Shown here one piece after another: positions 23,720 to 32,893 of a DNA stretch of 64,000 nucleotides. The notes beneath the pieces were generated by a model, which did no database searches, was not told the origin of the DNA, and saw only the letters and a list, made by a program, of their open reading frames with translations. Origin of the DNA: Ignavibacterium sp. GTDB taxonomy: Bacteria > Bacteroidota > Ignavibacteria > Ignavibacteriales > Ignavibacteriaceae. Each line of letters opens with the position of its first letter. Position 1 is the stretch's first letter. The position numbers and the translations under genes are program-made. Location: NCBI GenBank assembly GCA_032027145.1, contig JAVSMP010000001.1, positions 584,903 to 648,902 of the forward strand. The letters run 5' to 3'.

Positions 23720-25024
23720 ATGAATACCGCAGAACTTATCCGCAAAAAGAGAAATAATGAAAATCTGACAAAAGATGAGATTTTATTTTTAGTTAATAAT
23801 TTCACAAATAATAAAATACCCGATTATCAGTTTTCTGCATTTCTTATGTCAGTTTATTTTAATGGAATGGACAAGGCAGAAACATCTGCTTTAACAGAAG
23901 CAATGCTTTACAGCGGAATGATGTTAAATCTTTCTTCTATCAAAGGGATTAAAATTGATAAGCACTCAACCGGCGGAGTTGGAGATAAAACTTCTTTAAT
24001 ATTAGCTCCAATAGCTGCTGCTGCCGGTGTAAAAGTTCCAATGATTTCTGGACGCGGACTCGGGCATTCGGGTGGAACGCTTGATAAGCTTGAAGCAATT
24101 CCTGGTTTTAAAACTGATTTAACTTTATCGCAATACAAAAAAGTTTTACAAAAAGTTGGTGCTGTTTTAATCGGACAGACAAAAGAAATTGCTCCTGCAG
24201 ATAAACTTATTTATGCTTTGCGGGATGTTACTGCAACGGTTGAATCAATTCCGCTGATTACCGGAAGTATAATGAGTAAAAAACTTGCTGAAGGAATTGA
24301 TGGACTTGTACTTGATGTAAAAACCGGCAATGGCGCTTTTATGCAGAGGGAAAAAGATGCTGTTGCGCTTGCAAATTCACTTATAGAAACAGCAAAAGCT
24401 TTTAATAAAAAAGTTATTGGCTTTGTTACCGATATGAATCAACCGCTGGGTAATTACATTGGCAACTGGCTGGAAGTGTACGAATCAATTCAGGTTTTAA
24501 GAGATGGGAAGAAAAATGATTTGACTGAATTGTCATTAATACTTGCCGGTGCAATGATTTTTCTTGGAAAGAAAGCAGCATCATTAGATGAGGGGATTGA
24601 AGCAGCGATCAAAATATTAAAATCAGGAAAAGCATTTGATAAATTTGTAGAAATTGTAAAAGCACAGAACGGTAAAGCAGATTTTGTTATTCATCCTGAA
24701 AAATATCCAAAACCGAAATTTAATGAAGCAATAAAATCTAACTCAGCCGGATATTTATCCGAAGTTAATACTTATGAGCTTGGAATGGCAGCAATCGATC
24801 TTGGTGCGGGAAGAAAAACTAAAGATGGTATAATAGATCCAAAAGCTGGAATTATTTTTAATTACAAAATTGGTGATACTATTAATAAGAATGTTGTTCT
24901 GGCTGAGATATTTTCTGATTCAAAAGCAGGAATTGAGTCTGCTAAAAAAAGGATTGAGGGCGCGATTAAGATTTCTAAATCCAAACCAAAGAAATTAGAA
25001 CTTATAAAAACTGTAATTGATTAA
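23720..25024 (+). CDS. deoA: Thymidine/pyrimidine-nucleoside phosphorylase
   Basis: 434 aa; the N-terminus aligns with DeoA (ELIRKKRN...), with the glycosyl-transferase family 3 motifs HSTGGVGDKTSLILAPIAAAAGVKVPMISGRGLGHSGGTLDKLEAIPGF. Confidence 0.9.
   Translation: MNTAELIRKKRNNENLTKDEILFLVNNFTNNKIPDYQFSAFLMSVYFNGMDKAETSALTEAMLYSGMMLNLSSIKGIKIDKHSTGGVGDKTSLILAPIAAAAGVKVPMISGRGLGHSGGTLDKLEAIPGFKTDLTLSQYKKVLQKVGAVLIGQTKEIAPADKLIYALRDVTATVESIPLITGSIMSKKLAEGIDGLVLDVKTGNGAFMQREKDAVALANSLIETAKAFNKKVIGFVTDMNQPLGNYIGNWLEVYESIQVLRDGKKNDLTELSLILAGAMIFLGKKAASLDEGIEAAIKILKSGKAFDKFVEIVKAQNGKADFVIHPEKYPKPKFNEAIKSNSAGYLSEVNTYELGMAAIDLGAGRKTKDGIIDPKAGIIFNYKIGDTINKNVVLAEIFSDSKAGIESAKKRIEGAIKISKSKPKKLELIKTVID
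23726..24957. repeat. Segmental duplication copy A (1232 bp, identical to 31592..32823)
   Basis: Direct comparison of several stretches shows base-for-base identity at an offset of 7866 bp. Identity starts 5 nt after the deoA ATG and stops ~66 nt before the stop codon, after which the two copies are homologous but diverged. Confidence 0.85.
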
Positions 25025-25221
25025 ATTTATTATTGCTAAGAGTGTTGGTGCTGGATTTGAAGGGGTTGTACTTTGTAAAACAAGCTGTTCAGAACGAAAT
25101 AAGGTCTTCAGAATTTGCTACGTTTATTTAAATGACTGGTTTCTGAAATCGATCCCATAATTTTACACCTTTAAATTATAAATGAACTTGTTTAGAACAT
25201 TTATTTATGCAAGCCTTAAAA

Positions 25222-25284
25222 GTAAAATCCACCAAGGTGGATCAATGCTCAATGAAAAAATATTATTATAACATTGAGCATTGA
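25222..25284 (-). terminator. Tandem hairpin terminator downstream of the 1264-aa T9SS gene
   Basis: 13-bp perfect inverted repeat TCAATGCTCAATG...CATTGAGCATTGA (25242-25284), then TCCACCAAGGTGGA (25228-25241) followed on the minus transcript by TTTTACTTTT. Confidence 0.55.
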
Positions 25285-30444: not shown

Positions 30445-31108
30445 TGGAATACCCCGGCTAAGCTTTAGTTTAGTTTATTAAAATTGGGGATAAAGAGAAA
30501 TACTTGCTTATTTGAGTAAGTATAGATAAAAAATAAAACTCTATGTTTTACAAGTACGTTGTAGAGATTGAGAGAGAAATAAAATGAATCAAAACTGTGA
30601 ATGTAAAATTTCAAAAGTGACCCGATATATTTTTTAAAACAGATAGTTAAGTTAGATTTAACTAAAGAGATTATTTATATCAACACAACAAAAAAATATT
30701 TTCTTGGTTTTTTTTCTTTACAAGAATTATTCCTTTTAAGAAGTATTGTAAAATAATATTTTTTTTGTAAGAAGTAAAACTGAATGGCTAATGCTTACCT
30801 TGTTGTAAAATTTTTGGGTGATAAAATTGGTAGTGAAATTAAAAATGTATGATGGAGGATGTTTGGTAGTTTATGGAAGAGTATAACACAAAGATCAAAG
30901 GGTAAGTGCAAACGTTATTGGTTGCCATTGATTGTTATTTGTTGTTTTTAGTAGGAATATTAAAATGGAGTGATGGAATTGTGGAAAGATAGAATGAAAT
31001 TAAAAGATTGATAAATTTATACTGATACTAATTAATATTTAATTCATAATCCTTTTTATCTTAATCAGTAAGTGTAAATTTTATTTATACATTTTAAGGA
31101 GAATCATT

Positions 31109-32893
31109 ATGCTTTTCGTATTAGCATTAATCGGAGCCGTTGTTGCATTTTATCTTTATAATTCTTCAAAGAAAAAAGGAATAAAAGCACAGGCAACATT
31201 TTCTTTTATAGGTTTAGTGATTGCCATTCTAATTGCTTTTACACAATTGTTTGCAGTAATTCCTGCAGGACATTCAGGTGTAAAAGATTTTTTTGGTTCC
31301 GTTAGTGATAAAACTCTTGGACCGGGAATAAACTTTGTAAACCCAATGGCAAATGTTGTAAAGTTTGATACGCGTAAACAGGAAATAAAAGAAGTGATGA
31401 ACGTTCCATCTAAAGAAGGAATGAGTGTTGAACTTGAAACAAGCATGATTTTTCAATTAAAGACTGATAAGGTAAATCAAATTTATAAAACTGCTGGCAA
31501 CTATGAAGAATATCTTCAGAAACTTGTTATACCAAATTTTAGATCTGTAATACGCGGTGTAACAACAAAATATGAAGCAAAGGCACTTTACACCGCAGAA
31601 CTTATCCGCAAAAAGAGAAATAATGAAAATCTGACAAAAGATGAGATTTTATTTTTAGTTAATAATTTCACAAATAATAAAATACCCGATTATCAGTTTT
31701 CTGCATTTCTTATGTCAGTTTATTTTAATGGAATGGACAAGGCAGAAACATCTGCTTTAACAGAAGCAATGCTTTACAGCGGAATGATGTTAAATCTTTC
31801 TTCTATCAAAGGGATTAAAATTGATAAGCACTCAACCGGCGGAGTTGGAGATAAAACTTCTTTAATATTAGCTCCAATAGCTGCTGCTGCCGGTGTAAAA
31901 GTTCCAATGATTTCTGGACGCGGACTCGGGCATTCGGGTGGAACGCTTGATAAGCTTGAAGCAATTCCTGGTTTTAAAACTGATTTAACTTTATCGCAAT
32001 ACAAAAAAGTTTTACAAAAAGTTGGTGCTGTTTTAATCGGACAGACAAAAGAAATTGCTCCTGCAGATAAACTTATTTATGCTTTGCGGGATGTTACTGC
32101 AACGGTTGAATCAATTCCGCTGATTACCGGAAGTATAATGAGTAAAAAACTTGCTGAAGGAATTGATGGACTTGTACTTGATGTAAAAACCGGCAATGGC
32201 GCTTTTATGCAGAGGGAAAAAGATGCTGTTGCGCTTGCAAATTCACTTATAGAAACAGCAAAAGCTTTTAATAAAAAAGTTATTGGCTTTGTTACCGATA
32301 TGAATCAACCGCTGGGTAATTACATTGGCAACTGGCTGGAAGTGTACGAATCAATTCAGGTTTTAAGAGATGGGAAGAAAAATGATTTGACTGAATTGTC
32401 ATTAATACTTGCCGGTGCAATGATTTTTCTTGGAAAGAAAGCAGCATCATTAGATGAGGGGATTGAAGCAGCGATCAAAATATTAAAATCAGGAAAAGCA
32501 TTTGATAAATTTGTAGAAATTGTAAAAGCACAGAACGGTAAAGCAGATTTTGTTATTCATCCTGAAAAATATCCAAAACCGAAATTTAATGAAGCAATAA
32601 AATCTAACTCAGCCGGATATTTATCCGAAGTTAATACTTATGAGCTTGGAATGGCAGCAATCGATCTTGGTGCGGGAAGAAAAACTAAAGATGGTATAAT
32701 AGATCCAAAAGCTGGAATTATTTTTAATTACAAAATTGGTGATACTATTAATAAGAATGTTGTTCTGGCTGAGATATTTTCTGATTCAAAAGCAGGAATT
32801 GAGTCTGCTAAAAAAAGGATTGAAGGCGCGATTAAGATTTCCAAATCCAAATCGAAAAAATTTAGGCTGATTAAAAAAGTAATTAATGGATAA
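31109..32893 (+). CDS. Chimeric ORF: SPFH/band-7 N-terminal domain fused in frame to a near-identical second copy of thymidine phosphorylase
   Basis: Residues 1-~160 form a TM plus SPFH-like N-half (VIPAGHSGVKDFFGS...VIPNFRSVIRGVTTKYEAKALYT). From AELIRKKRNNE onward the protein is identical to 23720..25024 except for the last ~20 aa. Confidence 0.7.
   Translation: MLFVLALIGAVVAFYLYNSSKKKGIKAQATFSFIGLVIAILIAFTQLFAVIPAGHSGVKDFFGSVSDKTLGPGINFVNPMANVVKFDTRKQEIKEVMNVPSKEGMSVELETSMIFQLKTDKVNQIYKTAGNYEEYLQKLVIPNFRSVIRGVTTKYEAKALYTAELIRKKRNNENLTKDEILFLVNNFTNNKIPDYQFSAFLMSVYFNGMDKAETSALTEAMLYSGMMLNLSSIKGIKIDKHSTGGVGDKTSLILAPIAAAAGVKVPMISGRGLGHSGGTLDKLEAIPGFKTDLTLSQYKKVLQKVGAVLIGQTKEIAPADKLIYALRDVTATVESIPLITGSIMSKKLAEGIDGLVLDVKTGNGAFMQREKDAVALANSLIETAKAFNKKVIGFVTDMNQPLGNYIGNWLEVYESIQVLRDGKKNDLTELSLILAGAMIFLGKKAASLDEGIEAAIKILKSGKAFDKFVEIVKAQNGKADFVIHPEKYPKPKFNEAIKSNSAGYLSEVNTYELGMAAIDLGAGRKTKDGIIDPKAGIIFNYKIGDTINKNVVLAEIFSDSKAGIESAKKRIEGAIKISKSKSKKFRLIKKVING
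31592..32823. repeat. Segmental duplication copy B (1232 bp, identical to 23726..24957)
   Basis: See copy A. The antisense ORFs 23908..24138 and 31774..32004 have identical translations. Confidence 0.85.

Follow-up and report, generated by a model that had tools for sequence, protein, structure and literature searches.

A direct deoA repeat, an in-frame SPFH fusion and inserted T9SS cargo in an uncultured Ignavibacterium: an ordinary recombination scar with a probably artefactual perfect identity

The window analyzed here is a stretch of 64,000 nucleotides from Ignavibacterium sp. (GenBank assembly GCA_032027145.1, contig JAVSMP010000001.1, positions 584,903 to 648,902 of the forward strand), and coordinates without a contig name refer to it. 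It carries two copies of deoA, a thymidine/pyrimidine-nucleoside phosphorylase gene, and comparison of the window with itself shows that 1,232 nt of the first copy (23726..24957, + strand) recur in direct orientation with zero mismatches in the second (31592..32823, +). The first copy is a full-size gene encoding 434 aa (23720..25024, +), and the second forms the 3' part of a chimeric open reading frame (ORF) of 594 aa (31109..32893, +), which opens with the 5' end (161 codons) of an SPFH gene, a member of the prohibitin family (31109..31591, +). Between the two copies lies a gene for a large protein with a C-terminal sorting domain of the type IX secretion system (T9SS). Comparison with related genomes and with independent assemblies of the same strain leads to the conclusion that this locus is a real but ordinary recombination scar with a probably false perfect identity layered on top.

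The repeat starts at the seventh nucleotide of the copy 1 gene (ATGAAT, then ACC) and not 5 nt after the ATG, as had been stated in an earlier reading of the letters alone (the sequence-only reading). Immediately outside the left border, identity is ~30%. At the right border the abrupt stop before a diverged 3' end was described correctly: ~66 nt are homologous yet diverged (12 mismatches and an indel), followed by unrelated DNA. These ends are referred to below as tail 1 (24958..25024, +), which finishes copy 1 with …KPKKLELIKTVID and the stop codon, and tail 2 (32824..32893, +), which finishes copy 2 with …KSKKFRLIKKVING and the stop codon. The two repeat copies are separated by 6,634 nt comprising tail 1, a 278-nt spacer (25025..25302), the 1,264-aa T9SS protein (25303..29097, -; PF18962, TIGR04183), a 372-aa protein (29326..30444, -) with no Pfam or NCBIfam match, 664 nt of AT-rich non-coding DNA (30445..31108, GC 0.26) and the SPFH fragment. 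The content and order of this block agree with the sequence-only reading, and the sizes given there are corrected to 6,634 nt for the spacing and 664 nt for the non-coding part. As the repeats are direct, recombination between them would excise or amplify the block and never invert it, so that of the two outcomes proposed earlier excision stands, inversion falls, and amplification has to be added.

Judged by profile scores, both copies are members of the thymidine/pyrimidine-nucleoside phosphorylase family with all three domains (PF02885, PF00591 and PF07831) in each. Copy 1 and the copy 2 ORF score 546.8 and 545.3 bits against TIGR02644 (cut-off 409), and 521.6 and 519.2 bits against NF004490 (cut-off 269). 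The locus is flanked on the left by aspartyl-tRNA synthetase (AspRS; 21834..23600, -), identified by Pfam and conserved in synteny with the closest genome IGN3 and with loci L010 and L117-L123 (L numbers denote the comparison loci and contigs). On the right it is flanked by a tyrosine phenol-lyase-like beta-eliminating lyase (33059..34450, +; PF01212), a conserved flank that directly follows the single deoA in IGN3. This lyase barely passes the tyrosine phenol-lyase model TIGR02618 (723.4 bits against a cut-off of 720.7) and lies far under the tryptophanase cut-offs. Among the relatives, direct adjacency of the lyase to deoA is limited to the IGN3 clade; L059, L060 and L064 have it ~4.6 kb from AspRS with other genes intervening.

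In the chimera, Pfam and NCBIfam matches delimit residues 1-161 as SPFH and the final 433 codons as deoA from residue 3 to its end, the phosphorylase part being complete from that residue. The claim of an in-frame join to a truncated SPFH/band-7 domain within 594 aa was borne out, since only positions 2-115 of the 176 in the PF01145 (Band_7) profile are matched. What is left of SPFH comprises two hydrophobic segments and roughly two thirds of the domain. Full-length SPFH homologues have 277-292 aa and run 115-130 aa beyond the …ALYTAER… sequence. One such relative aligns to residues 15-250 of prohibitin 1 (8rrh) and to QmcA (8z5g) in the Protein Data Bank; on this alignment the fusion falls near residue 140 of prohibitin 1, and the remaining domain and the coiled coil of the solved prohibitin and QmcA assemblies are lost. 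By its alignments, the SPFH part is a family member truncated by descent and not an intact one. Window-specific changes in this part amount to 11 synonymous and 9 non-synonymous substitutions (neutral expectation ~4 to 16), with no frameshift and no stop, and this ratio suggests that the fragment has not been long adrift. A full-length SPFH identical to the N-terminal part (SPFH-N) was not found in searches that included a metagenome scan with SPFH-N.

The same 594-aa ORF is present in L001, L098, L099 and L116, and L091 contains a 593-aa version ending in tail 1. In relatives, SPFH (277-292 aa) and deoA (434 aa) are separate genes. Exact-protein look-ups of the 594-aa chimera and of the 434-aa deoA product gave no match. 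The other assemblies differ at paralogous variant sites; they were recovered through exact-protein look-ups of neighbouring genes.

The closest genome is IGN3 (CP053447.1, L008), a single-contig Nanopore plus Illumina metagenome-assembled genome from a freshwater anammox reactor (PMC7358590), with flanking proteins 88-97% identical to those of the window. Its gene order is PMT…AspRS(-) - deoA - lyase - ATP-grasp(-) - T9SS584(-), with one deoA, and L009 has deoA-lyase as in IGN3. Given this single-deoA locus, the window represents the IGN3 arrangement plus an insertion of 7,866 bp. A second arrangement, here called the deoA-SPFH type, occurs in more distant relatives (AspRS ~78% identical at the nucleotide level) and reads AspRS(-) - deoA - SPFH (full length, 292 aa) - ccsA - hemA. 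In ten relative contigs (L005-L007 and L117-L123; L005 and L117 have the same sequence) SPFH follows deoA, precedes ccsA-hemA, or both; the full order is spanned by L117, L119, L122 and L123, and L124 has deoA-SPFH-ccsA. From their shared order in these contigs, deoA and SPFH are old same-strand neighbours. The related genomes, to which the sequence-only reading had looked for an answer, hence provide both a full-length SPFH gene and a single deoA (in IGN3).

The 7,866-bp unit added relative to IGN3 is composite by DNA homology. It consists of a deoA tail, 278 nt of orphan DNA, the cargo pair (the T9SS protein and its 372-aa partner) with 137 nt of its own upstream region, ~510 nt of further orphan DNA, and the SPFH leader with 161 codons. 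The 278-nt spacer has no homologue in blastn comparisons with L005, L006, L008, L108, L112 and L114. Within the AT-rich stretch, three subsegments are distinguished by homology: 30445-30583 corresponds to the upstream region of the 372-aa homologue in relatives, 30584-31093 has no homologue in the fetched loci, and 31094-31108 corresponds to the SPFH leader in L005/L117. The whole stretch (30445-31108) has no Rfam match, and scans of it for promoters and terminators gave nothing above shuffled sequence. Homologues of the 372-aa protein (48-81% identity) all adjoin RecG in the contexts seen, and L108 and L112-L115 show the order RecG - 372-aa/T9SS pair - HD-domain gene. No homologues of ccsA, hemA, RecG or the HD gene were found in the window. 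The order deoA-cargo-SPFH expected of a donor was not found among the contexts of the 372-aa homologues or in the SPFH-N metagenome scan, which returned only separate deoA-SPFH loci and one further copy of the chimera; L124, the closest lineage, has deoA-SPFH and no cargo. The GC content of the unit (0.30-0.37) is similar to that of its flanks, so composition is uninformative about its origin.

Mobility was also considered. The ORFs of the unit have no replication, partition, integrase, transposase or recombinase match in Pfam or NCBIfam, no terminal inverted repeats are present at its ends, and it has no match in Rfam, PLSDB, a phage collection or IMG/VR. A plasmid, integrative element or transposon was rejected on these grounds.

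All SPFH homologues read …KYEAKALY-TAE-R(D/E)KL…, and a deoA start of MN-TAE-LIRKK is found only in the window and IGN3, the corresponding residues being TTE in L009/L010 and TVE in the deoA-SPFH type. The joint of the chimera falls within ACCGCAGAA(C), encoding Thr-Ala-Glu (31592..31601, +), a microhomology of at most 10 nt that is present in SPFH and in the window/IGN3-type deoA in the same codon phase. The true overlap could be as short as 2 nt or as long as 10 nt, depending on the codons of the donor SPFH. From the distribution of these residues, the joint was made with a deoA of the window/IGN3 type, and since the TAE codons are limited to the window and IGN3, it would postdate the gain of the alanine codon in that lineage. 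Because the microhomology is in phase, the fusion is in frame automatically.

The SPFH-deoA junction and the two-copy layout are genuine and not an assembly artefact. The comparison set consists of independent assemblies of one nearly clonal strain, found through the proteins of neighbouring genes. Five long JGI contigs (132 kb to >1 Mb) show the order AspRS - deoA - T9SS - 372 aa - chimera - lyase, and a 40-mer across the junction is present in 12 distinct contigs/samples processed by the JGI, NCBI and Logan pipelines. Short-read contigs end at the repeat borders with offsets fitting k of 31, 55 or 99. The overlap at the joint (at most 10 nt) is below any k, so a graph assembler cannot have invented the junction.

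The perfect identity of the two copies is a different matter: it holds in this assembly, as the sequence-only reading reported, and is probably not a property of the genome. All differences among the assemblies fall inside the repeat, where 17 biallelic nucleotides occur at six places (23789, 23921, 24351, 24601/2/4, 24719 and nine in 24820-24862); none is found in the 16-22 kb outside. In the window, L098, L099 and L100 the copies are identical within each assembly, yet no two of these four assemblies have the same mosaic of the two alleles. In JGI sample 3300038721 (L101, L095, L002) the alleles are phased to the flanks: T at 23789 is on the AspRS-side contig and C at the equivalent position on the SPFH-side contig; tail 1 follows the alternative version of the 24820-24862 cluster, and tail 2 the window-type version. 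Contigs of this sample end exactly 99 nt from the variants, which fits the edges of a k=99 graph. Together, the differing mosaics, the identity within each assembly and the flank-phased alleles indicate that the repeat was probably collapsed, its bubbles popped arbitrarily and one consensus used twice. On the best reading, the two copies differ from each other at the 17 sites, and their true identity is probably ~98.6%. Independent complete homogenization of the copies in each sample is formally possible, but would require many more events. The suspicion of a collapsed or chimeric assembly raised by the sequence-only reading was accordingly right about the identity and, in view of the 12 contigs/samples, wrong about the junction.

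The two tails differ in ancestry. Tail 2, together with the intergenic DNA between it and the lyase, aligns with IGN3, L009 and L010 and is orthologous to these three loci. Tail 1 aligns best with the deoA-SPFH type and ends in the same KKLELIKTVID as L124, the contig whose SPFH N-terminal part is also closest to that of the window (86% at the nucleotide level). On the left, the upstream region and the deoA 5' end are IGN3-like, the 5' end being 92-96% identical to IGN3. The haplotype linked to tail 1 alternates: its 24820-24862 cluster resembles L124 (88%), a stretch of 95 nt after that resembles IGN3 (87% versus 74-79% for the deoA-SPFH type), and tail 1 follows. By these similarities, the 95-nt stretch is a conversion patch. 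Across the core, 29 informative sites are of the deoA-SPFH type and 27 of the IGN3-clade type, with a run of deoA-SPFH-type sites at ~23875-24307; an IGN3 control counted in the same way has 19 deoA-SPFH-type sites versus 38. In the neighbouring AspRS gene, a ~300-nt patch (22349-22626) is closer to the deoA-SPFH type (79-86%) than to IGN3 (72-79%), and AspRS outside it is 86-97% identical to IGN3; from this pattern the patch looks like a recombination import.

Two mechanisms had been offered for a perfect core with diverged flanks, namely gene conversion between older paralogs and a very recent partial duplication. A simple recent partial duplication is not supported. The two tails of different ancestry speak for conversion, although the partners were most likely a resident and an imported homologue and not old paralogs. 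At the 3' side we found what conversion leaves behind, a near-identical tract bounded by diverged homology with alternating patches. At the 5' side no flanking homology was found (~30% identity); identity there reaches the illegitimate joint, and the 5' border is accordingly the end of homology and not the end of a conversion tract.

The comparisons show the anatomy of the locus and its recurrence in several samples, the different origins of the two tails, the microhomology, the paralogous variants and the fact that the block is an insertion when set against IGN3. We consider it rather probable, with moderate confidence, that the window is a structural variant of an IGN3-like strain that acquired DNA by homology on one side and a microhomology joint on the other, with patchy conversion afterwards. 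The native locus would have been AspRS(-)-deoA-lyase in an IGN3-like chromosome, and the incoming DNA would have come from a related lineage with the deoA-SPFH order carrying cargo between deoA and SPFH. One side may have recombined within homology (deoA, AspRS), and on the other SPFH would have been joined illegitimately to the resident deoA at the Thr-Ala-Glu microhomology. A circularized fragment integrating by a single Campbell-type crossover would give the same product. Afterwards the imported and resident deoA would have been homogenized by patchy, bidirectional exchange halting before the last ~66 nt; owing to such later conversion the left crossover cannot be placed. The horizontal origin, the order of events and the recombination pathway are what we infer from these sequence comparisons.

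Several observations weigh against this account. No donor genome with deoA-cargo-SPFH was found in the searches described above, and the closest relatives of the parts are 80-86% identical at the nucleotide level. Even in IGN3, 33% of the informative sites are of the deoA-SPFH type; with a deoA phylogeny this noisy, the argument from the core mosaic is a moderate one. Classical conversion tracts do not easily explain why homogenization extends as far as the illegitimate joint; exchange by crossover, either unequal between sisters or through excision followed by reintegration, is a better fit. The base at 23789/31655 is of the IGN3 type in the copy on the AspRS side and of the other type in the copy on the SPFH side, a phasing that fits a Campbell-type crossover slightly better than simple linear insertion. 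Finally, linkage and copy number across the 1.2-kb repeat are read from assembled contigs only.

Other explanations account for parts of the same evidence. That no genome contains SPFH-N::deoA and that two strains or loci were stitched together via deoA is scarcely credible: the repeat exceeds short-read length, the copies are suspiciously identical and contigs break at the repeat borders (L003 at 31592, L004 at 32769, which is 32823 minus 54, L102/L103 at 24957 and L105-L107 at 23755), but such breaks are expected from a true repeat, an overlap of at most 10 nt is far under any k, and the junction k-mers were assembled independently in 12 contigs/samples. Simple tandem duplication of a resident deoA…SPFH segment was rejected, as the unit is entered at the repeat start and left at the repeat end, with an exit into a differently derived tail and the lyase and not into the SPFH 3' half. 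We also regard as improbable an old intragenomic event with concerted evolution, in which the ancestor of the window, IGN3, L009 and L010 had an AspRS-deoA-SPFH-ccsA-hemA locus whose heme cluster and SPFH 3' half gave way to a deoA copy and the lyase; IGN3, L009 and L010 would later have lost the loop by recombination between the copies. This scenario requires at least two independent losses and the long survival of an unstable 1.2-kb direct repeat. It would explain why the SPFH remnant is at the place of SPFH in the ancestral order, why L117 has the same ATP-grasp gene ~10 kb downstream of SPFH, and why the window looks intermediate between the two arrangement types; it also agrees with an SPFH-N identity to L117 (~81% at the nucleotide level) similar to that of AspRS (78%) and deoA (82%) and with an IGN3-type tail common to all single-copy relatives. 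However, the deoA codons for Thr-Ala-Glu used at the joint occur only in the window and IGN3 and not in L009/L010, and a remnant with no non-synonymous excess, frameshift or stop is unexpected beyond 12-19% nucleotide divergence. The native context of the cargo is different (RecG - HD), and IGN3 appears to be without the 372-aa gene, no IGN3 homologue being among the matches listed.

The function and the present state of the unit allow further alternatives. The sequence-only reading had presented the chimera as a protein with no obvious precedent, and we see no sign of a meaningful new protein, as the genes are separate in relatives and the in-frame join is automatic. Its selection as a functional membrane-anchored nucleoside phosphorylase (SPFH-N::thymidine phosphorylase), with the duplication kept by selection, is highly doubtful. 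An ORF intact in every assembly that holds the chimera, the native SPFH leader, the complete phosphorylase part and a dN/dS of ~0.23 for the SPFH part on the window branch would be in line with selection; yet the in-phase microhomology forces the reading frame, conversion by a functional copy would keep the phosphorylase part intact, and a recent event explains the low dN/dS equally well. The fusion is limited to one clonal strain, its two genes are separate in all relatives, and the SPFH cut lies within the domain with the coiled coil gone. The chimera is most likely a by-product without the part of SPFH needed for ring assembly, judging from the domain boundaries. Somewhat less remote, though still rather unlikely, is an excisable or amplifiable unit: in at least some populations an IGN3-like chromosome would coexist with a free 7,866-bp circle or a tandem array, interconverting by RecA recombination between the 1.2-kb direct repeats, and the integrated copy would be one path through the assembly graph. 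Two contigs, L089 (7,965 nt, 99-nt terminal overlap) and L090 (7,896 nt, 30-nt overlap), self-close with a period of exactly 7,866 nt and hint at excision or amplification. L091 reads SPFH-N::core::tail 1 followed by cargo, a linkage that requires either a circle or two or more units in an array, and a single-unitig cycle requires pruned chromosomal edges, suggesting that the unit is covered more deeply. A 0.4-kb tandem array contains the ends of L099 and L100, so these are short-read assemblies that crossed the 1.2-kb repeat by path resolution, and the recombined empty site would be the exact IGN3 arrangement. These arguments are taken from contig paths, however: k of 31-99 cannot phase 1.2 kb, and pruning at low coverage can yield cycles. 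Six assemblies, some >1 Mb, place the unit in the chromosome, and it carries no replication, partition or recombinase gene and matches nothing in the plasmid and phage databases named above. A non-replicating circle cannot exceed the chromosomal copy number, and only amplification could give excess coverage. No paper was found for the samples with circular contigs (SRR5930282/3 and GCA_013328915.1). This alternative concerns the present state and not the origin, and it is compatible with acquisition by one-sided homology. An extension of it, itself improbable, would be that the unit is a recombinase-less cassette with the 1.2-kb host deoA as attachment site, which enters, leaves and amplifies by RecA recombination; it might then exist as a circle or multi-copy array above chromosomal abundance in some communities, with the T9SS/372-aa pair as selectable cargo.

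Of known processes, homology-facilitated illegitimate recombination (HFIR) resembles the favoured acquisition by one homologous side and one microhomology joint, and it is reportedly the subject of classical papers on Acinetobacter and pneumococcus. HFIR acts on linear DNA with one homologous and one illegitimate end and is described in naturally competent bacteria and in E. coli conjugation (PMC3240628). In the window, likewise, one border lies in homology (deoA, plus the imported AspRS patch), the other joins two genes without relationship through no more than 10 nt of microhomology, and foreign genes stand beside the anchor within mosaic surroundings. There are also differences. HFIR was described experimentally and the present case is known from sequence comparison; the illegitimate joint falls in the anchor gene itself, so that the anchor was duplicated and not partly deleted; and the same structure would result from a single crossover of a circular intermediate. 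Ectopic gene conversion and concerted evolution in bacteria are familiar from tufA/tufB and the rRNA operons. The near-identical tract ending abruptly within homology, the alternating parental patches and the diverged unconverted ends are features shared with these systems, in contrast to which the copies here are most likely a resident and an imported homologue and not old paralogs of one genome, one of them is fused to another gene, and their perfection is probably due in part to the assembler.

Direct repeats also delimit RecA-dependent tandem amplifications in Salmonella, E. coli and Acinetobacter, whose founding junctions lie at microhomologies. The 1.2-kb direct repeats around a 6.6-kb segment, the deletion product identical to the arrangement of the closest genome and the contigs self-closing at unit length are similar to such amplification or Campbell-type units. 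Unlike these, the window unit is entered and left at opposite repeat ends, which sets it apart from a resident segment simply duplicated in tandem. In de Bruijn-graph metagenome assemblies, repeats collapse and bubbles are popped. The identity within each assembly, the mosaics specific to each assembly, the variation confined to the repeat and the contig ends at its borders ± k are typical of this; the difference is that the repeat and all four of its borders are real, and only the base-perfect identity is probably artefactual.

The locus offers a natural example of gene gain by one-sided homology and a microhomology joint, followed by conversion, in uncultured Ignavibacteriota of engineered and environmental microbiomes. 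It is well resolved: relatives reveal both the ancestral gene order and the native-type site, and for each imported part a closest relative can be named. It also contains two warnings: metagenome assemblers can print differing repeat copies as base-perfect, and variation between assemblies within one strain can represent paralogous variants and not strain SNPs. If excision or amplification of the unit were confirmed, it would lend itself to following how the copy number of a T9SS cargo gene changes in a community.

An independent insertion at the deoA locus was seen in a related species, in L010 (JAKIZM010000023.1). Its order is AspRS(-), an 84-aa N-terminal deoA fragment, membrane proteins of 467 and 681 aa, a full deoA and the lyase; the deoA 5' stretches at 4837-5079 and 8554-8796 of that contig form a 242-nt direct repeat of 90% identity with 5079-8538 in between. 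Taking the window and L010 together, deoA seems to be a recurrent anchor for gene gain. If the cassette with a deoA attachment site were real, this deoA-flanked insertion would point to a recurrent route of gene gain at deoA.

Other relatives show variation in SPFH. In L006 (2375-3254) and L007 (116-950), from JGI samples 3300022242 and 3300022243, the gene is split into ORFs of 168 and 138 aa by an extra A in an A-run. The split lies directly after …ALYTAERE…, the same site as the fusion in the window. A homopolymer error may account for the split, which both samples show. When L122, L120 and L006 were compared with L117 and L119, the SPFH N-terminal part of L122 was 75% identical to that of L117 at the nucleotide level, and their AspRS and deoA were 88-90% identical. 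SPFH alleles appear to have been exchanged among deoA-SPFH lineages independently of their flanks.

Farther from the repeat, IGN3 has ~6 kb between the PMT-like gene and AspRS (483-6625 of L008) where the window has only 0.5 kb (21336-21834), which makes this a further variable spot adjoining the locus. Tandem arrays with a unit of 74-75 nt (or 85 nt) occupy three intergenic places in the window (10828-11028, 13559-14413 and 17511-17945). Each unit contains two hairpin-forming halves (GTCAGTCTGAGCGGAGACGAAGACTGA… and GTCACGTTTCGACTTCGCTCAACGTGAC) and is present in 2 to 9 copies of 85-92% identity. It is within the third of these arrays that contigs L099 and L100 stop. Beside the arrays, at ~12790-13490, lies a Gp49-like/HTH_3 gene pair of the toxin-antitoxin type, as seen from the annotation of L098 (20108-20814).

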